Notes under the pieces: generated by a model
Seen by the model: the letters and a program-made list of their open reading frames with translations, nothing else
Told to the model about the DNA's origin: nothing
Databases searched by the model: none
Position numbers and translations under genes: made by a program
Shown: positions 23,266 to 34,791 of the stretch, piece after piece
Layout: the number at the start of each line of letters is the position of its first letter
Position numbering within the stretch: position 1 is the stretch's first letter
Assembly: GCA_048882385.1 (NCBI GenBank)
Contig: JBHLRQ010000008.1
Span: 1-56,504, forward strand
DNA: 56,504 nucleotides
Direction: 5' to 3'
Origin: Candidatus Thorarchaeota archaeon
GTDB taxonomy: Archaea; Asgardarchaeota; Thorarchaeia; Thorarchaeales; Thorarchaeaceae

Positions 23266-23553
23266 TTACTGCGATTCCCAAGCCATCATTATTGCAGTTG
23301 CTAAATCCTTAGAAGATGCTCCAATCAGGATTGCACCCGATTCTTCCATTATTCTTGTAATGGTTTTTTCAATCAATTTAGAATCCTTTAAGGATCCAAC
23401 AAGCGATTTCTCGATCGTCTGAATTGCATCTTCAGGGTGTAGGAAAAAGTCACCGTGTATTGTTATTTGTTGAATTCTATCTGAATCTACCCAAAGCTTG
23501 ACTTTGACGAGTTTCCCTTCAGGAACCTTATAGCTTGAAATTCGCATAGTCAT
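23266..23553 (-). CDS. lplB: lipoate-protein ligase small subunit (LplB, stand-alone accessory domain)
   Basis: YKVPEGKLVKV, ITIHGDFFLHPEDAIQTIEKSL; TAATG stop/start overlap with lplA. Confidence 0.85.
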   Translation of the reverse strand: MTMRISSYKVPEGKLVKVKLWVDSDRIQQITIHGDFFLHPEDAIQTIEKSLVGSLKDSKLIEKTITRIMEESGAILIGASSKDLATAIMMAWESQ

Positions 23554-24320
23554 TACCTCGAGAAGTTCCATTCGTCTGTTGCATACCTTTCTTTGGCAAG
23601 TCGCTTTGTTGATTTTAGTTCGCTCTCACTGAGTGAGTCGTGTATTAGTGTAATGTCTAATGCTTCAGAGAAACCAACCATGAGGGCTTTTCGCAATTCT
23701 TCTATCTTAACATCTCTTTCAAGGAGGTCTCTTATGGATGTGACTCTCTCCTTTACATCAGAAATCATCTTGTCTGATATTTTCTCCTGCGGTACTTTCA
23801 AGATATTGAACATCAGAGCTACATCTAAATCCAGTAATATTGTTCCATGTTGCAGAGCACAACCATGTCTACGTGTCATTGCATTCCCTGATACTTTCTT
23901 CCCACCAGCATTCACATCATTGATTGGTTTGAACTCTCCCTCTATACCAAGTATTTTCAGAGCTTGGACAATGCCTCCACAAAGAAGTCTGTAAGACTCC
24001 AAAATATCATCTGGTGACAATCTATGCCTCCTTGGCATGATGATGCTGTAGGTGATCTCGCCTTCATAATCATGATAGACCGCACCACCGCCTGTAATCC
24101 GGCGGATATAGTCAACATTATTCGACCTACAAAATTCGATATCAACTTCATCAGCCATACTCTGAAACGTACCTATAGAAACTGCAGAAGGATTCCATCG
24201 ATAGAGTCTGAGAGTCGGTTGAGCTTCTCCATCTTTCATTGCTAGCATAATGGATTCATCGATAGCCATGTTTGTATAGGCATCATGTGTTTCTAGGTCA
24301 ATGAATCGAAACTCGTCCAC
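23553..24320 (-). CDS. lplA: lipoate-protein ligase catalytic subunit
   Basis: NMAIDE, PTLRLYRW, RRITGGGAVYHD, KKVSGNA, QHGT. Confidence 0.92.
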   Translation of the reverse strand: MDEFRFIDLETHDAYTNMAIDESIMLAMKDGEAQPTLRLYRWNPSAVSIGTFQSMADEVDIEFCRSNNVDYIRRITGGGAVYHDYEGEITYSIIMPRRHRLSPDDILESYRLLCGGIVQALKILGIEGEFKPINDVNAGGKKVSGNAMTRRHGCALQHGTILLDLDVALMFNILKVPQEKISDKMISDVKERVTSIRDLLERDVKIEELRKALMVGFSEALDITLIHDSLSESELKSTKRLAKERYATDEWNFSR

Positions 24321-25310
24321 TTATGTCACCAGCTTAGTTTCTTCAATGGACCTTAAGATTTGATCCTCTGTCAAATGTTTTGGATAATTATACATAGGTC
24401 CACGCGGTCGTTCATTATAGAAGGGCCTGTTGCAGCCCTTGCAGCCTGTGACCTGAAACGCCTCTCCTGATGATAAGATTTGTCGAAGGCTGTCACTATC
24501 AATATCCAGCGATATCCTGCCGTCTTTGACCTCCCTTACTTGTTCTCTCTTCAACAAACCTCTTGAAACGAGGTATCTAACCGTCTGAATTCTTCTGTAT
24601 GCTGCTAAGTCCGGTGGTTTTTGATTTTCAAGGGATGTACCTTTGATATTGGTGAACGCAAAGAGACCCACACTGATGCCTATATCAAACATCTTCATTA
24701 TGAACTCTACTGCTTCAATCTCGGTTTCGCCTAGACCAACTATGAGATGAGTAGTGACATTTCCTTTTCCAAAAATCTTCAGAGCTTCCTTCAGTCCATT
24801 AATGTGACCGTCCCAACGATATGAGGAATTTCTTTTCTCACCCTTGATATCCTCGAAAAGCTCAGGAGTGCTTGCATCCATTGCTATCCCAATATTCGTA
24901 ATGCCACTTTCCTTGAGACGGACCATGTCAGCTCTTGTGACGGGATGGATGGCTACAGACAATGGTAATTTTGAAATTCTCCTTAGTTCACTTACAATCT
25001 GCACAACATCATCAACAACCTCTGGATAACAAATAGTCTGAAGACAGATTCGCCTAAACTGTCCTGGTGCTGGCCATTTTTTTATGACTTCTTCAATCCT
25101 ATATTCTGGCCATGATATTCGTGATAATCTATCAGATGATGATGTACTCTCTTGAGCCTGTGGACAAAATGCACAATTTGAATCACATTTGCCATGCCGA
25201 TGTGTCATAATGAATGCTGTTGTAAAGTTAGGGTCCTGCTGTCCAGTTTCTAGTCCCAACTGGATTGCTGTTCCAAGAGATAGACGGACCCTATCGACCA
25301 TTATTATCAA
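24321..25310 (-). CDS. lipS2: radical SAM protein, archaeal-type lipoyl synthase subunit (LipS2-like)
   Basis: CDSNCAFC (CX3CX2C), LSRISWP, THLIVGLGETE and C-terminal VTGCKGCNRPFYNERP, resembling the TxGCPxC(N/D)RP motif; abuts lplA. Confidence 0.75.
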   Translation of the reverse strand: MIIMVDRVRLSLGTAIQLGLETGQQDPNFTTAFIMTHRHGKCDSNCAFCPQAQESTSSSDRLSRISWPEYRIEEVIKKWPAPGQFRRICLQTICYPEVVDDVVQIVSELRRISKLPLSVAIHPVTRADMVRLKESGITNIGIAMDASTPELFEDIKGEKRNSSYRWDGHINGLKEALKIFGKGNVTTHLIVGLGETEIEAVEFIMKMFDIGISVGLFAFTNIKGTSLENQKPPDLAAYRRIQTVRYLVSRGLLKREQVREVKDGRISLDIDSDSLRQILSSGEAFQVTGCKGCNRPFYNERPRGPMYNYPKHLTEDQILRSIEETKLVT

Positions 25311-25322
25311 GCACCTTGAATG

Positions 25323-26294
25323 TTAGTTGGCTTTAACCGTGTTGTTCCTGCTAGTAATTCTAAGTTCACAGAGGTCTCCTTCGTTGAATATTTTGTTAAA
25401 CTGACCGTATCTCTTTGGGATTAGTATAAGTTGAGGTGTCTTTCTCTTTGTATAGTACCTGGAATAGATGAAGCATGAAAGACCTCGCAATTCAATATTA
25501 TCCAAGTACGACATAATTGACGGTCCGCGTGTGAATAGACTTGCACCTGATTTTGCTTCACGTACTATACCTGCACATGAATCACTGAGGTAGACTTGAT
25601 CATTCTTCTTGAGATCAGATGCACCAATCACTCCCCCGATCCTATAATGAGAGAGACCTCCATCAAGTATCCCCGAAATTCGTTCTTTCTTAGTTGCCGC
25701 AGAAAGCCCTACCAAATCACCAACTGTAGAATGGTCAAGACTTTCTGCATAGCCAATGATGTTGTCGTCAGTAACTGAACTGATCAAGAACTCAATCATC
25801 TCAGATGTTCTTCTAGATTTTCTAGATTCAATCTTATAATCAACGTATAGTGGATGTGAATTACTCGAACGAAGAAATGCGTTCTGCGGCAGTATTTCCA
25901 CGTGGTAGTGGGGTCCTGTCCAGTAGTTGAAGTATCTGGACCGAATAGCTGTTCCTATTTGGTCACCTAGACCGATAGATTCCCCTTCTAATACACTTGG
26001 TTTGCAATGCATTATGCGGACAATGTCACTTTCTGATTCCTCAGGAATGATTCCTATACCATAGTCAAACTCGTCAGTAGGAAACTGTCTGGGTTTTCCC
26101 ATTCTCATCTTTTTGATCCTGACAATTTTCCCTGAAACAGGAGAAACAATGTCTCCATTCCATTTTTGATGTCGTGGGTAGATATCAATCGCAGAACCAA
26201 TATCATGGCCAATGTATGGACTATTGAAATAAGAAAAGTAAGCATCTTCTGGAGCATGAATTCTGATTCCTACTGCAGACCCGATTATACGCAT
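25323..26294 (-). CDS. M23-peptidase-like putative zinc hydrolase
   Basis: FSYFNSPYIGH...AIDIYP, VSPVSGKIV, IMH, GDQIG, TGPHYHVEI (HxH). Confidence 0.6.
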   Translation of the reverse strand: MRIIGSAVGIRIHAPEDAYFSYFNSPYIGHDIGSAIDIYPRHQKWNGDIVSPVSGKIVRIKKMRMGKPRQFPTDEFDYGIGIIPEESESDIVRIMHCKPSVLEGESIGLGDQIGTAIRSRYFNYWTGPHYHVEILPQNAFLRSSNSHPLYVDYKIESRKSRRTSEMIEFLISSVTDDNIIGYAESLDHSTVGDLVGLSAATKKERISGILDGGLSHYRIGGVIGASDLKKNDQVYLSDSCAGIVREAKSGASLFTRGPSIMSYLDNIELRGLSCFIYSRYYTKRKTPQLILIPKRYGQFNKIFNEGDLCELRITSRNNTVKAN

Positions 26295-26320
26295 CAGCTT
26301 AACCTCTCAGGCATGGAGTG

Positions 26321-26345
26321 AGCATGCTCAACAACGGAGCATGCT
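26321..26345. promoter_or_regulatory. intercistronic inverted repeat made of two palindromic units
   Basis: AGCATGCTC-aacaacg-GAGCATGCT. Confidence 0.4.
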
Positions 26346-26355
26346 ACAATCTCAC

Positions 26356-27726
26356 TTATGCTTCTTTGGCTGCACTGTATATTGGAACCAGTTTCTGTTT
26401 CCATTCGTCTAGACCTTTCGGATCAGTGGGATATTCACTATACACTCTGCGTATGTCGTTCATCAATCCAGCTACTTTTGAAACACGAAGTAGTAGCGGA
26501 ATCTTGCCAAAACCAGCAACCAAACGTTTGAACTTCTCGCCCGCACCAAACTTGACCTCACCTGTCATGGATGTGTCAAGAAGATCACTAGCCTTTATGA
26601 TCTGCTTCTTGAATGCAAAATCAATGTCATCGTTAGTGATATTCAGCAGGAACCATCTAAAGACATCAAGAGCAGCTTGTTTTGATCCGTAGCTCTTATG
26701 ATAACGTGGATTATAATCCCAAAGAGACTTGATAGAAGTATCATTCCTTTCAAGCGCTTCCGAGGCTACAATACCTGCATGTGCTCCGCCCAACAGAGAT
26801 GAACCAATGCCACCACCGTGAATTGGATTGACTTGACATGCAGCATCCCCAACTAACATGAAGTTGTCGTCAACCATAGTATCGATTGGTCTTCTAATTG
26901 GTGCGACTCCTCCACTGCTATCAATAACCTTTAGTTCTCCCCATGTGTCCATCCAAGTCTTCTTCACAAAATCGTACTGGATGTCTTTTGGATTACGGTG
27001 TCCTTCGATGGTCATAACACCATTACCCACATTGACTCTGTTTTTGCCCTGTGGAAATACCCAAGTGTATCCTCCTAGGGTTTCTTCTTGATTCCAGAAG
27101 ATTTCGAGAATATCTGGAGTTTCAAAGTCAAAATCAGGAGTTTCATAGATATCACGCCATGCAACCATTCGGTCCTCACTAGCGATGTTTCGTTCCACTG
27201 GTGAGGATTCAGGAAGTTGCATTCGGAGCATTCCTGTTGCACCTGTGGCATCAACAACGATTCGCCCTCTGATATCTTTCTCTGGTCCTCGATCTTGCGA
27301 AAGCTTCACCCCAGCAACCTTTCCTTCGTCAAAGACTAGCCTCTTTACTCGAGTGGAAGCCATCACTTCTGCGCCTGCACTCTCTGCAAGTCCAACAAAC
27401 CATTGACCCATTTTGTGTCGATTGAACGACATTCCAGTCGTTGTAGGACCTTGCATTCTCAACCTGTGATCTCTGTCAGGAGCAATTAGATCAATCCCAT
27501 TCACCTCATATTCGACAATTCCTGCTGGGAGTTCAGGAATACCAACGAGCTCTCTAAGCTCTTCGATATGGTGATTGCCTAGAGCATCCCCACAAGTCTT
27601 GTGTCCAATTGTATCTCTATCCTTTCTATCAATGAGAAGTACTGTATGACCTCTCTTTGCTAGGGTGTAAGCTGTGGTTGCGCCTCCGGTACCAGCACCT
27701 GCTACTATAACATCGAAATCATCCAT
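26356..27726 (-). CDS. geranylgeranyl reductase-family FAD oxidoreductase
   Basis: GAGTGG, KTCGDA, DATG, GYTWVFP (YxWxFP), GDAACQVNPIHGGGI. Confidence 0.88.
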   Translation of the reverse strand: MDDFDVIVAGAGTGGATTAYTLAKRGHTVLLIDRKDRDTIGHKTCGDALGNHHIEELRELVGIPELPAGIVEYEVNGIDLIAPDRDHRLRMQGPTTTGMSFNRHKMGQWFVGLAESAGAEVMASTRVKRLVFDEGKVAGVKLSQDRGPEKDIRGRIVVDATGATGMLRMQLPESSPVERNIASEDRMVAWRDIYETPDFDFETPDILEIFWNQEETLGGYTWVFPQGKNRVNVGNGVMTIEGHRNPKDIQYDFVKKTWMDTWGELKVIDSSGGVAPIRRPIDTMVDDNFMLVGDAACQVNPIHGGGIGSSLLGGAHAGIVASEALERNDTSIKSLWDYNPRYHKSYGSKQAALDVFRWFLLNITNDDIDFAFKKQIIKASDLLDTSMTGEVKFGAGEKFKRLVAGFGKIPLLLRVSKVAGLMNDIRRVYSEYPTDPKGLDEWKQKLVPIYSAAKEA

Positions 27727-27729
27727 GAA

Positions 27730-28473
27730 TCATACCTTCTTTGACATTTTCCAAGTCTGTTCGAGAAAGCCTTCGAGTTGCATAGAAATCAGTGGATTGT
27801 CTGCCCAGCCACAAACACTCAAATCTGGCATGGATATTAGAGCCTCCTCTGAGTCAATCACTATGTCGATTGCTAGCGTATCTCCCTTAATACGCTGTTG
27901 GAAGTTAGGGATTTTGAACGAACTTTGAGTTCCGAGGATCGCCCTGATTTTCACGCCTTGAATTGCAGCGTCATCCAAAGTTGCTATGACGCTCTCTCCT
28001 AAATCTTCTATTTTTGGTGCTACGATTAGAATCGTGTTTTTAGCTCTAGAAATCATAGAGAGCATCTTTGACATAACATCATTGCTTCCTCTAATTGTGT
28101 AGATTAAAGCTGGAATCGTAGTGGTTGAAGTTCGAAACTCCTGGAGTTTCATCAGGTCATCGAACAGTTGCTTTAATTTTGATGTCAATGCTTCTTTGAG
28201 GTGTGAGAGAGGTGCAAACTGGTATACTTTGGGTCTTCCCTCTTGAAGAACAACATATCCCTTTCCGACCAATGCATCGAGTATCGAATACAGATTGGCA
28301 TGATGAATTCCTGTTTCGTCAGCCAGATCTGATACAGTCGCAGATTCTCTGGTATTTAGAGCTAAAATCACAGCAGTTTCATGAGCTCCGAAACCGAGCT
28401 CTCTAAGTGTAGCGCTTGCACGAAATGTGATTTCATCTGCGGTCTTCAAACTCGATAGGTTCATTTTTGTCAT
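27730..28473 (-). CDS. TrmB-family transcriptional regulator
   Basis: LRELGF..E, LYSILDALVGKGYV, GRPKVY, and C-terminal MISRAKNTILI sensor domain. Confidence 0.88.
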   Translation of the reverse strand: MTKMNLSSLKTADEITFRASATLRELGFGAHETAVILALNTRESATVSDLADETGIHHANLYSILDALVGKGYVVLQEGRPKVYQFAPLSHLKEALTSKLKQLFDDLMKLQEFRTSTTTIPALIYTIRGSNDVMSKMLSMISRAKNTILIVAPKIEDLGESVIATLDDAAIQGVKIRAILGTQSSFKIPNFQQRIKGDTLAIDIVIDSEEALISMPDLSVCGWADNPLISMQLEGFLEQTWKMSKKV

Positions 28474-28503
28474 AAAATTATGTGCAATTACTACTTAAAA
28501 TAG

Positions 28504-29430
28504 TTACGATAGACCAGCGAATCCGGTTAATATTTCCTTGACGATGTCTCTAGTAGCGATTGCGGTAATTCCTGTCGGGTCGATCATAGGATTAAACTCT
28601 ACAATATCTGCATAGCGAACCTTGCCTGTTTTGAATGTGGATCTGAGAAGGTCAACAAGATCTTGCATTGAAAGACCTCCAGATTCAGGATGGCTTACTC
28701 CTGGAGCAACTTGTGGCGAAAGAACATCAATATCAATTGTGACATAGAGAAATTCAACACGTCTTCCTATCTCTTTGACGCGTGTGTGAAATTGATCCTT
28801 CGTCAAAATTGGATTTGCATTCCCTGTCATCTCCTTTCGTTGTTCGGGAAGTGCAGAACGAAGGTCATAGGCTACAATATCCTCAGTCAGAACTAAACCG
28901 TCGTCAACCATCCTCCTCACACCTGTCGAGTGGGAAAGCTGATACCCTCCCATGTCAGAATAAAGATCTGCATGAGCGTCAAGATGAATCAAGCCATACC
29001 GGCTGGGACGTCCCCTTTTGAGACCTTTCAATATTGGATAGGAAATGAAATGGTCTCCTCCCAGAAAGAGAAGGCAACTGTTTCTCTTAGCAAGCTTGTT
29101 GCAGGCTTCAGAAATATCAATTGCAGCAGCTTCGGGAAGGCGCAGGACTACCTCCAAGTCCCCAACATCCTCAAGAGTCATCTTCTTTGTCAATGGCTCT
29201 TCTATCGCTTTTTTTCTTCTAAGAGAAAGAGGATAACTATGAGACCGTTCGCTATCTGTTGCTTGTCGAATTGCATCTGGTCCAAATCTGGGACCAGGCA
29301 TATAGCTAGAAGTCATGTCATATGGTATACCAATAATCCCAACATCAGGGTCTCCTGACTCAGGTTCTGGTATCCCAAAGAAAGTCCGAGGTAACCTTAG
29401 AAAACCATTGAGTTCATCCTTGAGAGGCAT
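28504..29430 (-). CDS. speB: agmatinase (ureohydrolase family)
   Basis: GIPYD, PRFGPDAIR, GGDH, DAHAD, DIDVL, PGVSHPESGG, DIVEFNP. Confidence 0.85.
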   Translation of the reverse strand: MPLKDELNGFLRLPRTFFGIPEPESGDPDVGIIGIPYDMTSSYMPGPRFGPDAIRQATDSERSHSYPLSLRRKKAIEEPLTKKMTLEDVGDLEVVLRLPEAAAIDISEACNKLAKRNSCLLFLGGDHFISYPILKGLKRGRPSRYGLIHLDAHADLYSDMGGYQLSHSTGVRRMVDDGLVLTEDIVAYDLRSALPEQRKEMTGNANPILTKDQFHTRVKEIGRRVEFLYVTIDIDVLSPQVAPGVSHPESGGLSMQDLVDLLRSTFKTGKVRYADIVEFNPMIDPTGITAIATRDIVKEILTGFAGLS

Positions 29431-29526
29431 GAATAAGACAGTTTTTTGGTTCAAGATAAAGATGATGTAGAAAAAGAAGAGAGAAGATCCATGTTGAGAA
29501 ATTCTCAACACGGATCAATTCTGATA

Positions 29527-31191
29527 CTATACTTGATATGTGCCGCCGCCTTTACCCCGAGCCATAAGCACAATATTCACAATGGCACCCAAACCCACAA
29601 CACCCACGATAGCCAGCGTGAAAGGCATACCGTCATTGAACATTTCTTGCAGAAGACTGATTGGGTCTGAACTGACAGTAAATCCATCAATGTGTGTTTG
29701 TTTGTAGTATGTTGTTCCGTTGTATTCGTAGCTCATTATGGCTGGTGCGAATGCATAACCACCCTCATTGGGGAATGTCACTGTATAGGTTGTCGTATTG
29801 AACCAGTTTCCACCATCTAATTGTGCAGTGTTCGCACTCTGAGTACCTGCTACGGTCACTGATTCATAGGTGGTTCCTATCATATTATCAACAACAGAAA
29901 CATTGTAGATGGGTTCAGAATCTTCGTTATGCACTGAAACTGTTACTGTCGTTGAACCACCGATAGTGATCGTATCCGGATTGAAGGACCGATCGAATCT
30001 TACGAGGGGTGGGAAACTACCAGGCTCGAAGCTCAGAATGTAGTCTGGCTGATTGGTATAGTATGAGGCATTCCAGAAGACAACTCCAGCACTAGAGTCG
30101 TAGAATGTTCTATTCAGCGCTTCATCTTCAGGTGAATATGAAGTGACATTCACAGGAACAAACGCAGCAACAAGAGATTGTCCTGAACTCAACCCGTTCA
30201 CGGTTTGACTTGGCGATTTACCCAGTAGATCCTCAAAGATCTTGAGTTCATCTGACGATGTTGAGAGTTCTTGGTCTCCGATATAGCCAGCCGCAGCAAT
30301 AGCAATTGGTCCATCAAGCTCTGGCATCTGTGAAAGCAGGAATGACGCTGGTGTGGGAGTTGTGTTTCCACCAAAACCTCCAATCAGATCCATCAAGTTT
30401 CCCATATCAGGAATTGCTAGAATCCCTGCCCCAGACGCTCTTGCACCGGTGAAGACAGTACTGTCAATCGAAGCAAGGAAACCAGTCTGATCCATGACAT
30501 CAAGAACACTGTTGACAGCATCCTCAAATGGATTTGTTACCTGATAGATGAAGACATTGATACTAGTGAATGGTAAATCAACAGGTTCACCTACTATTCC
30601 TTCGATGAACTCCTCATCAATTTGTAGATTCAGAAGCTCAGCAAAAGAGAAGTCGAATTGAGTCTGCAGATGAGTCCTTATTGCAGCCATGTTTGCCTGA
30701 GCAACTGCATTATCAAGATTGATGAAGACATCAATGAGGAGACTGAAGTCTGTCCCTAGCATATCGAATATTGAATCAAAACCGAATCCGCCTTCACCAA
30801 ATTGAGTGATCATGAAGTCACCATCACCTGCTCCGGTGAAGTTGAACAGATTCGGACCAACTAGGTCCAGCATATAATCCAATAGCTCTCCGTGAGTTGC
30901 AATCAGAGCTGTTACAACACATCCTTCGTACATCTGACCAGGACCTGATTGTTCCAGCCCCAGTTGAGCAGATGGCACACCGAGTTGTCCGTAGACCACA
31001 GCAGGTTCTCCTTGAGGACCTATCATTGCAGCAACAACTTCTGCACCATTCTGAATGAGATCGAAAAAGAACTCTTCTCCAATGTCTTGTGCTACTACCG
31101 CTGCACCGGCGTTAGCCGCAGATACAACAGGTGCAGACAACAGAAAGCTCAAGGCAATTATGATAAATGCGTGCTTATAGTTTGGTTTCAT
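29527..31191 (-). CDS. secreted cell-surface protein with BatD/TRAP-beta-like Ig domain and C-terminal TM anchor
   Basis: Signal peptide; many NxS/T sequons; VTVSVHNEDSEPIYNVSVVD...GGYAFAPAIMSY; C-terminal TM followed by a short tail. Confidence 0.72.
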   Translation of the reverse strand: MKPNYKHAFIIIALSFLLSAPVVSAANAGAAVVAQDIGEEFFFDLIQNGAEVVAAMIGPQGEPAVVYGQLGVPSAQLGLEQSGPGQMYEGCVVTALIATHGELLDYMLDLVGPNLFNFTGAGDGDFMITQFGEGGFGFDSIFDMLGTDFSLLIDVFINLDNAVAQANMAAIRTHLQTQFDFSFAELLNLQIDEEFIEGIVGEPVDLPFTSINVFIYQVTNPFEDAVNSVLDVMDQTGFLASIDSTVFTGARASGAGILAIPDMGNLMDLIGGFGGNTTPTPASFLLSQMPELDGPIAIAAAGYIGDQELSTSSDELKIFEDLLGKSPSQTVNGLSSGQSLVAAFVPVNVTSYSPEDEALNRTFYDSSAGVVFWNASYYTNQPDYILSFEPGSFPPLVRFDRSFNPDTITIGGSTTVTVSVHNEDSEPIYNVSVVDNMIGTTYESVTVAGTQSANTAQLDGGNWFNTTTYTVTFPNEGGYAFAPAIMSYEYNGTTYYKQTHIDGFTVSSDPISLLQEMFNDGMPFTLAIVGVVGLGAIVNIVLMARGKGGGTYQV

Positions 31192-31192
31192 T

Positions 31193-31807
31193 CTAGAATT
31201 CCTCCTTGGGTCGGACTACAGCTCCAACGATGGCCGCCACTATCACGACTATGACCGGGGTGAGAAACCAGATCAATAGTGGCGTGAGAAGTGTCATTAT
31301 TGAACTCAAATCGAAACCCATACCCATTCCAGAGATCAGTGGCAAAATTTGATCAATCATTCCTTGAATTAGAGGAATTCCAAGAATGTCGACAATTGAG
31401 GAACCTGGTGGGACAACGAATGAGCCCATTGAGATACTTGACTGAAATAGCAGATATGCACAGAGTGCAATTATGCCAAGACAAGAGAGCCAGACCATCA
31501 GACCGACAACAAAGGCACCTTTCTTGGTTCCAGCCATAACCCCTCCAACAAAGCCAGCTCCTGCCCAAATGGCGACCATAGTGAAGTTACTCATAGGATT
31601 GACGAGTATCAGGTTCACCATGACCATTGTTGGCCTCAGATAGTTACCAAACTGAGGTGCAAAGATGGCTATCAAATCATTGTAACCATCTGGCAGTAGG
31701 AACCAACCTCCAAGTAGGACTATAGCTAGAGCAATGAGCCAACCGAAGTATTTGCTCGAAAATGATGAAATAGCATATACCTCCATAAATGTAAGGTTCT
31801 GATTCAA
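31193..31807 (-). CDS. multi-TM membrane protein
   Basis: Hydrophobic 204-aa ORF, 1 bp from the surface-protein gene; start codon uncertain. Confidence 0.7.
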   Translation of the reverse strand: MNQNLTFMEVYAISSFSSKYFGWLIALAIVLLGGWFLLPDGYNDLIAIFAPQFGNYLRPTMVMVNLILVNPMSNFTMVAIWAGAGFVGGVMAGTKKGAFVVGLMVWLSCLGIIALCAYLLFQSSISMGSFVVPPGSSIVDILGIPLIQGMIDQILPLISGMGMGFDLSSIMTLLTPLLIWFLTPVIVVIVAAIVGAVVRPKEEF

Positions 31808-33981: not shown

Positions 33982-34791
33982 CTAGGAGGATGGGAGACCA
34001 TATCCCTCCTCCAAGAGTTCAATAAATCTCGAAACAAATCGAGTGGCGGGAGCACCATCAACAACATCATGATCAAGTGTCACAGTCAAAGCTAAGAACT
34101 CTCTATTTACAATGTTTTCATCTACAAATCTTGGTTTCTCAGCAATTCCACCAACTGCTATGCTGAGTGAATATAGACCTATTGGAATTGCCCACCCTCC
34201 AGACTTTGCGAATCTGCCTATGGAAGTTACCGAAACCGTTCCCATTCGTTCTTTGATGAAAAATGGATCCTTGCGTACTTTTCGCCAGAAGAGAAGATCT
34301 CTCAGGAATTTTGGAGCTGAGAGTAGCATTTTGATACTGCGGTTTTCCTTATCCTCAGTATAATCGGTTTCCTTTTTCTGTTGTGCAGTCCGAATCTCTT
34401 GATTGATTTCCTTGACAGTCTTTGTGTTTGCGGATTTCAGTATGAAATTGACAGGATATGGACGACCTTCTATTGTAGTTTCGATGAGTATGTTGATATT
34501 AACATCATCGAATATGATGAAGTGTTTTCCAATCATAAGTGAATGAACTTGTTTGTGTTCATCAACTGCCTTCCCCACGCAAGCTGCAATCCACCCAGTG
34601 AATGATATTGATTCACCTGTTACTTGCTTGTATTCATGCAATTTCCTACGTGCTTCCGTCACATCTGCTTCAAATAGACCAACCATTCTATGTTTCTTAA
34701 CAGCAAAATCAGACATCTCGATAATGAGTTTACGGGATTTTGGAACAGGTTCTCTTCGATAACCTTTCTCTGTCATTTTGGGGTCCACCAT
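33982..34791 (-). CDS. 2-oxoacid dehydrogenase E2-like acyltransferase, catalytic domain only
   Basis: EADVT, GTVSVTSIG, LTVTLDHDVVDGAPATRF; no lipoyl or E3-binding domain. Confidence 0.85.
   Translation of the reverse strand: MVDPKMTEKGYRREPVPKSRKLIIEMSDFAVKKHRMVGLFEADVTEARRKLHEYKQVTGESISFTGWIAACVGKAVDEHKQVHSLMIGKHFIIFDDVNINILIETTIEGRPYPVNFILKSANTKTVKEINQEIRTAQQKKETDYTEDKENRSIKMLLSAPKFLRDLLFWRKVRKDPFFIKERMGTVSVTSIGRFAKSGGWAIPIGLYSLSIAVGGIAEKPRFVDENIVNREFLALTVTLDHDVVDGAPATRFVSRFIELLEEGYGLPSS

Follow-up and report, generated by a model that had tools for sequence, protein, structure and literature searches.

A run of nine minus-strand genes on a Thorarchaeota contig, in which the lipoate-assembly genes lipS2, lplA and lplB follow a TrmB-family regulator, a long flavoprotein of the geranylgeranyl reductase (GGR) family and a protein of the DUF8155 family, is in our assessment probably a lineage-specific juxtaposition of separate modules and not a new lipoylation pathway. 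The run lies in a 56.5-kb window, the whole stretch of DNA that was analysed; the window corresponds to contig C8 of an assembly (G000) of 3.7 Mb and 95% completeness from the family Thorarchaeaceae. An initial annotation of this DNA had read six of the genes as a variant pathway with a single lipS gene, in which the flavoprotein would be an electron donor and not a lipid reductase. These six genes are, in the order in which they are read:

27730..28473 (-), TrmB-family winged-helix regulator, 247 aa (PF01978)
26356..27726 (-), long GGR-family flavoprotein, the "type A" paralog, 456 aa (TIGR02032)
25323..26294 (-), DUF8155 protein with M23 fold, 323 aa (PF26482/PF26483)
24321..25310 (-), LipS2 radical-SAM lipoyl synthase subunit, 329 aa (NF053743)
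23553..24320 (-), LplA, catalytic (large) subunit of the ligase, 255 aa (PF21948)
23266..23571 (-), LplB, small subunit of the ligase, 101 aa, or 95 aa from an internal ATG (NF053749, PF10437)

All six are minus-strand open reading frames (ORFs) as had been described, and family scans agree with the names given earlier to TrmB, GGR, LipS2, LplA and LplB, the third gene being M23-like by fold. The six genes are real, but the run consists of nine, since three more genes, orf204, orf554 and one of the arginase family, lie ahead of TrmB on the same strand, and the gaps along it are in order 1, 15, 30, 3, 61, 12, 0 and -19 bp. The earlier values of 3, 61, 12 and 0 bp hold, while the last, -1 bp, holds only if LplB starts at the ATG of its seventh codon; the longest LplB ORF gives -19 bp.

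In the reading that we favour, lipS2-lplA-lplB would be a standard archaeal lipoate cluster that lost its neighbour lipS1, the latter surviving alone on another contig. By analogy with published work on these enzymes, LipS1 and LipS2 would jointly insert two sulfurs, and LplA/LplB would attach octanoate or lipoate to GcvH and to the lipoyl domain of E2. The arginase-TrmB-GGR module would be older, existing without lip genes in the sister family, and its GGR would be a Sulfolobus-type three-domain prenyl or lipid reductase, one of two long paralogs in the Thorarchaeota order. The middle gene, DUF8155, would encode a cytoplasmic and dispensable M23-fold metallohydrolase. A hairpin and a ribosome-binding site would in this family replace the terminator-like T-run of the sister family, and the lip genes would probably be read through from the TrmB-controlled promoter. 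The finding is a family-specific rearrangement of a known pathway, and LipS1/LipS2 and LplA/LplB of Asgard archaea have been surveyed before (Tanabe et al. 2023, PMC10332631).

The lipoate pathway and the position of lipS1

LipS2 scores 345.1 bits with the NF053743 model (cut-off 270) over model positions 1-292, which places it within this equivalog. Among 23 sequences there is no variation at its CX3CX2C cysteines (C42, C46 and C49) or at C290 and C293 in the C-terminal part. LplA matches PF21948 with 194 bits, with TIGR00545 and NF053750 under their strict cut-offs, and LplB matches NF053749 (68.4 bits, cut-off 65) and also PF10437. The two have the make-up of a two-subunit ligase, that is, a catalytic LplA domain and a separate, adjacent small subunit encoded by overlapping genes, and the 19-nt lplA/lplB overlap is found in 12 of 26 rows (the window and 25 loci). 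The LipS1/LipS2 pathway of Thermococcus is said to be a related known system.

As noted in the initial annotation, lipS2 is the only lipS gene of the window and a lipoyl carrier is lacking; all matches to GcvH and Biotin_lipoyl come from other contigs. Outside the window, contig C18 carries a LipS1-family ORF of 335 aa with a CX3CX2C motif, which aligns with model positions 4-268 and is thus full length. Its NF053742 score of 210.7 bits is under the cut-off of 230, and the runner-up family, BioB, reaches 40.8 bits. Among 40 genomes of the family, chosen at a completeness of at least 90%, 38 have a LipS1 match of 195-236 bits, one of them above the cut-off, and since the other 37 lie just below it the marginal score is a lineage trait. 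Elsewhere in the genome are GcvT-GcvH (C9) and another GcvH-like gene (C102). Contig C73 (7327-11961) carries an operon for E1alpha, E1beta and E2 that ends in a 264-aa LplA paralog and has an AhpD-like gene behind it, and C5 (44900-45994) carries a fused Lpl(AB) beside a mevalonate-kinase-like gene; LipA was not found in this genome. With a LipS1-family gene, the ligases, GcvH and E2 all present, the known pathway appears complete and only the position of lipS1 is unusual. The genome check that the initial annotation had proposed, for lipS1, lipA and gcvH, consequently speaks against its single-lipS variant, with lipS1 and GcvH on other contigs and lipA absent. For annotation this means that lipS1 should be sought elsewhere in a genome before the pathway is called incomplete.

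The arrangement can be compared with the archaeal data in part of PMC10332631, where lipS2-lplA-lplB-lipS1 is the typical order and LipS1/S2 outnumber LipA in Asgardarchaeota. The cluster studied here has the same LipS2, LplA and LplB families in the same order and with the same tight spacing, and the genome has LipS1, GcvH and E2 without LipA, as in the Asgardarchaeota of that survey. Unlike the typical cluster, it has lipS1 on another contig and is preceded on the same strand by TrmB-GGR and DUF8155, which is seen in one Thorarchaeota family only.

A second, divergent lipS2 (33-35% identical) stands directly beside a lipS1 copy in some genera of the family:

G313:C1:629766-631809, second lipS2 with lipS1
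G315:C27:71231-73262, second lipS2 with lipS1
G321:C56:37484-39527, second lipS2 with lipS1
G336:C7:116242-118198, second lipS2 with lipS1

This pair is additional to the studied block and in G336 replaces it; the genome of the window has no second LipS2. A tblastn search of 72,556 plasmids with LipS2 gave no match at 1e-20.

Linkage of the block within and outside the family

Gene order within the family is conserved far beyond chance. Of 25 loci in Thorarchaeota genomes, all 22 that reach upstream have GGR before DUF8155 and 22 of the 23 that reach downstream have LipS2 after it, the exception being locus L040. The corresponding counts for 28 metagenome loci with a Thor-type DUF8155, some of whose contigs duplicate genome loci, are 21 of 21 and 19 of 19; that almost only such loci were found is due to the Thor-specific patterns used in the metagenome scan. 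The gap between TrmB and GGR is 2-5 bp in the family loci, and likewise in genome G311 of the sister family.

The block is not complete everywhere. TrmB is absent from L039 and from the genera g2 and g10, and undetected in L096. The g2 and g10 loci read arginase-GGR-lipS2-lplA with neither TrmB nor DUF8155; lplB follows lplA in two g2 loci, and no lplB match was found in the g10 locus L112. Genome G321, of the same family, has lipS2-lplA-lplB with no block gene within 10 kb upstream. In L040 (4191-4781) an N-terminal (5') fragment of lipS2 stands alone after DUF8155, interrupted by an unrelated ORF on the opposite strand, which is either an insertion or a misassembly. Loss of LipS2 was considered for three family genomes and rejected: the contigs of G388 and G363 end just after GGR and that of G367 about 0.5 kb past DUF8155, so that assembly breakage and not gene loss explains the missing gene.

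Such conservation might reflect pure synteny inertia, in which slow rearrangement keeps nine genes together although they belong to several independent transcription units. Synteny in the family loci extends to the convergent neighbours orf177 and EamA and to orf204, orf554 and the arginase gene upstream, and TrmB and DUF8155 drop out of the block leaving the rest undisturbed, as would be expected on this explanation. We nevertheless find it improbable, since spacer lengths of 12, 0 and -19 nt, together with a Shine-Dalgarno sequence but no promoter-like element ahead of DUF8155, argue for at least one polycistronic unit from DUF8155 to lplB, which probably starts from TrmB.

Outside the family the picture is different. 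LipS2 is found in 292 of 400 Asgard genomes, and 20 lipS2 loci from other Asgard families follow the order lipS2-lplA-(lplB)-lipS1, with lipS1 seen in 13; a type-A GGR or a DUF8155 gene adjoins lipS2 in none of the 20. In G311 arginase-TrmB-GGR (47% identical) forms a unit by itself with a T-rich stretch behind it; this contig also carries lipS2-lplA-lplB, 39 kb away, and DUF8155 is encoded on a different one. A single long GGR, unlinked to lipS2, is present in each of four other Asgard genomes. The synteny check across Asgard archaea that had been proposed therefore turns out against the variant pathway, linkage being kept in one family and absent from the sister family and the 20 loci. Three outcomes had been named beforehand as telling against that pathway: the flavoprotein groups with lipid GGRs, as shown below, and LipS1 is encoded elsewhere, while the third, lack of conserved linkage, is half true, as it applies outside the family and not within it.

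The GGR flavoprotein and its possible relation to LipT

The flavoprotein belongs to the GGR family, as judged by TIGR02032 (197 bits, cut-off 158.8). With the DGGGPL-reductase equivalog NF041080 it reaches 443.3 bits against a cut-off of 580, and its paralog on contig C3 reaches 425. Its residues 4-446 align with residues 7-441 of the Sulfolobus acidocaldarius GGR chain (SaGGR; 3ATQ/4OPC) with an E-value of 1e-85, and it retains the GxGxxG motif for flavin adenine dinucleotide (FAD), the CGD, YxWxFP..GxG and GDA..GGG motifs and the C-terminal domain, hence the three-domain architecture, the motifs and domains being those described in part of PMC10821996. The likeness to SaGGR thus covers the FAD, catalytic and C-terminal domains with the shared CGD, YxWxFP and GGG motifs. 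The two differ in that the first P of PxxYxWxFP is L in the type-A proteins of the family, and in that the genome of the window has a second long paralog. This genome contains nine GGR-family genes, of which two are long, type A in the block and type B on C3; they are 34% identical, and G000 and G311 alike have type B between radA and purA. In a 20-row tree, which contains no LipT sequences, the long GGRs form one clade (100/100), inside which type A, type B and the single-copy genes make a polytomy. As a full-length relative of SaGGR within the long-GGR clade, the type-A protein looks like a true prenyl or lipid reductase, and the earlier view that it is not a lipid reductase is not borne out.

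LipT may be a GGR-like protein. Under a different explanation of the locus, the type-A GGR would have taken on the role of a LipT-like flavoprotein and would pass electrons from NAD(P)H to LipS1/LipS2, the six genes forming one TrmB-controlled lipoate operon. The GGR shares its directional run with lipS2 in every family locus that is long enough, including those that lack TrmB and DUF8155, it is not followed by a terminator-like T-run as it is in the sister family, and it is unusually conserved (69-91% identity across family loci, compared with 51-72% for LipS2). Bacterial lipS1-lpl(AB)-lipT-lipS2 clusters carry an FAD oxidoreductase which is thought to deliver electrons, according to the relevant part of PMC10332631, and the table of that survey scores LipT=1 for some Thorarchaeota (5 of 10 SMTZ1-45 rows and 1 of 10 MP8T-1 rows viewed), the gene matched not being stated there. 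These LipT calls are, however, patchy within genera whereas type-A GGR is uniformly present, which fits a threshold effect or a different paralog.

Several further points make the recruitment of the GGR as a LipT unlikely in our opinion. The protein keeps all motifs of prenyl reductases together with a C-terminal domain of the SaGGR type, and the TrmB-GGR pair predates the juxtaposition, since it stands alone in the sister family. None of the 20 other Asgard lipS2 loci has a type-A GGR, and the lipS2-lplA-lplB cluster of G321 in the same family is without a GGR within 10 kb upstream. Adjacency after the loss of intervening genes would be the default outcome and gives no sign of selection, and chance neighbours are not unusual in genomes with nine GGR-family genes each. 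A LipT would be expected to show conserved linkage to lipS1, lipS2 and ligase genes across lineages, and the linkage is seen in one family only. The lipS1-slpl(AB)-lipT-lipS2 clusters of sulfur oxidisers likewise have an FAD-dependent oxidoreductase beside lipS2 and a lipoate ligase, as far as described in parts of PMC10332631 and PMC6067878; unlike these, the present locus has a 456-aa three-domain enzyme of the SaGGR type with its own regulator, and no sHdr/LbpA context was seen near the block. A literature search gave no paper joining "lipS1" with "geranylgeranyl", nor "LbpA" with "geranylgeranyl reductase" and "lipoate". Position alone is no ground for renaming an adjacent GGR as LipT. If the recruitment were nevertheless true, it would name the electron donor for archaeal LipS1/S2, for which the locus offers a concrete candidate pair.

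NF053744 was tried as a model for LipT and rejected, as it represents an unrelated family. Other GGR-family genes were seen near lipS clusters. Locus L049 (G128:C6, 2789-8930), from another Asgard family, has on one strand lipS2-lplA-lipS1, an HpnJ-like B12-binding radical SAM protein and a short GGR-family flavoprotein of 507 aa. The gene for this flavoprotein, two genes behind lipS1, is a further and independent instance. In G095 another GGR-family gene lies 4 kb from the lipS cluster. Given about nine GGR paralogs per genome, we judge both neighbours to be compatible with chance.

The DUF8155 protein

The gene between GGR and lipS2 had been called M23-like and inserted into the block, and the structural model agrees with the former. 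The precomputed family of the block's own protein is PF26482 and that of most homologues PF26483, both being named in Atlas; nearly all homologues carry the Thorarchaeota label. Local Pfam and NCBIfam scans gave no match for the protein, including none to PF01551 at E<=0.01, although some homologues carry a precomputed PF01551, and a sequence search of the PDB gave a chance-level match alone (E 0.74). An AlphaFold (AF2) model made from 27 sequences has a pLDDT of 90.5. In this model residues 8-151 adopt the M23/LytM fold, with a VIA-align Z of 13.0 and a root-mean-square deviation of 2.5 over 116 residues to EnpA (6smk), 28 chains reach Z>=8, and Foldseek matches lysostaphin. The C-terminal half (DUF8155_C) consists of beta-barrels with weak fold matches (Z about 5). 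H30, D37, H96, H129, H131 and E133 are invariant in the 27 sequences, and with the H..D and HxH residues among them the metal site looks intact. No signal peptide was seen in the sequence, and the protein is predicted to be a cytoplasmic M23-fold metallohydrolase. It shares the fold and the H...D and HxH metal-site residues with the M23/LytM peptidases lysostaphin, EnpA and LytM, and differs from them in being cytoplasmic and archaeal, in its extra C-terminal beta-rich domain and in the absence of a PF01551 match. Where the protein is annotated as "M23 peptidase", it is better called DUF8155, an archaeal family of cytoplasmic proteins whose metal site is intact. No paper naming DUF8155 was found in the literature search. 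Thorarchaeota are not known to have peptidoglycan, the classical M23 substrate.

One may ask whether the protein acts in lipoate metabolism, as an amidohydrolase for the supply or turnover of lipoate or octanoate, for instance by freeing the acid from an amide for LplA, and translationally coupled to lipS2. In the window 12 nt separate the gene from lipS2, with a range of -4 to 71 nt across the family, the invariant metal-site residues suggest an active enzyme, and a lack of peptidoglycan would leave no classical M23 role. Among Asgard archaea DUF8155 is confined to LipS2-positive families, and in G002 its distance to lipS1-lipS2 is 5 kb. PMC10332631 moreover describes the archaeal origin of octanoate as unresolved. 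Even so, we regard this role as quite unlikely. DUF8155 was found in 139 of the 400 Asgard genomes and is absent from 13 LipS2-positive families (74 genomes). It is also missing from genera g2 (0/5) and g10 (0/4) of the studied family, which keep lipS2-lplA and have LipS2 in 5/5 and 3/4 genomes, respectively, and because of these two genera it is dispensable. G311 and G308 carry the gene without linkage to lipS2, and a tblastn search of G004, which is related to G002, detected none within about 8 kb of lipS2. Its neighbours elsewhere vary and are unrelated to lipoate (nitroreductases, DUF885, CoaBC, thiolase/HMG-CoA synthase). DUF8155 is not an obligatory part of lipoate assembly. A complex prediction for LipS2 and DUF8155 (score 0.00, mark 0.32) gave no answer and counts neither way.

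A distant DUF8155 protein (28% identical) is encoded in L098 (2017-5763), divergently to a thiolase/HMG-CoA-synthase-like pair of isoprenoid precursor genes and with no lip genes. About a dozen DUF8155 matches in family genomes contain one in-frame stop (e.g. G354:C24, G322:C112 and G368:C1); these are either natural stops overrun by the profile alignment or real decay.

Putative regulatory signals and possible co-transcription

The regulator scores 45.5 bits with PF01978 (cut-off 25.6), in agreement with a winged helix-turn-helix protein. The full-length equivalogs TrmB, TrmBL1 and halo-TrmB, which take in the sugar-binding C-terminal domain, give 29-44 bits against cut-offs of 500-650, and the protein has 247 aa. 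Two spacers, both on the minus strand and recognised from sequence and conservation, are of interest for the expression of the block:

28474..28503 (-), promoter/operator-like spacer 5' of TrmB
26295..26355 (-), spacer between GGR and DUF8155 with a hairpin and a GAGG site

In the first, a TATA-like TTTTAA is followed by an 18-nt motif at 28477-28494 (-) which ends about 4 nt before the ATG of TrmB. The motif, starting with TTTTAAGTAG, is present before TrmB in 16 of 18 printed family loci and is kept across loci where TrmB itself is only about 56% identical; a related palindrome, ATTTAAGTAG, precedes TrmB in G311 of the sister family. This element is likely to be an autoregulated, near-leaderless promoter, judging by its sequence and position. 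In the second spacer, a GC-rich hairpin or palindrome with a GCATGC core (26322-26344) follows directly after the GGR stop and is found in most printed family spacers, and a GAGG ribosome-binding site stands between it and the DUF8155 start. No terminator-like T-rich stretch and no AT-rich promoter-like element were found in this spacer; the sister family has a T-rich stretch where this family has the hairpin. The hairpin may act in RNA processing or stability, or serve as an operator. Both the motif upstream of TrmB and the palindrome between GGR and DUF8155 are unique in the 3.7-Mb genome, where a regulon search gave no second convincing site.

With a hairpin and a Shine-Dalgarno sequence but no terminator between GGR and DUF8155, co-transcription across this junction is plausible. 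The arrangement suggests one transcript from TrmB to lplB, and a common control of the block from the TrmB promoter is plausible.

This brings us to the observations that weigh against a mere juxtaposition of modules. The junctions look built for co-transcription, with neither T-run nor AT-rich element between GGR and DUF8155, spacers of 12 and 0 nt ahead of lipS2 and lplA and a single, strongly conserved promoter motif upstream of TrmB. The block has stayed intact although identities across loci fall to 37% for DUF8155 and 51% for LipS2. DUF8155 is restricted to LipS2-positive families (10 of 10, compared with 0 of 80 genomes in nine LipS2-negative families), these co-occurring families being kin and not independent samples. 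The LipT=1 scores for some Thorarchaeota in the Tanabe survey (PMC10332631), so far as its table goes, also belong here. One could speculate that the Thorarchaeaceae lipoate genes were captured into the TrmB unit, with the GGR doubling as a LipT-like supplier of reductant and DUF8155 as an optional amidohydrolase accessory, which would make the locus an independent archaeal counterpart of the lipT clusters; we give this combined scenario a small chance. A juxtaposition of an older TrmB-GGR module with a lipoate cluster that lost lipS1 is, to our mind, the more probable history.

Other features of the window

The run begins upstream of TrmB with three genes, for two of which (orf204 and orf554) family scans gave no match:

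31193-31807 (-), orf204, no family match
29527-31191 (-), orf554, no family match
28504-29511 (-), arginase-family gene (PF00491, 9e-62)

About 5.5 kb upstream of the block, a 269-aa ORF at 33982-34791 (-) matches the last ~80 residues of the catalytic domain of 2-oxoacid dehydrogenase E2; it is without a lipoyl domain and resembles a truncated or diverged acyltransferase.

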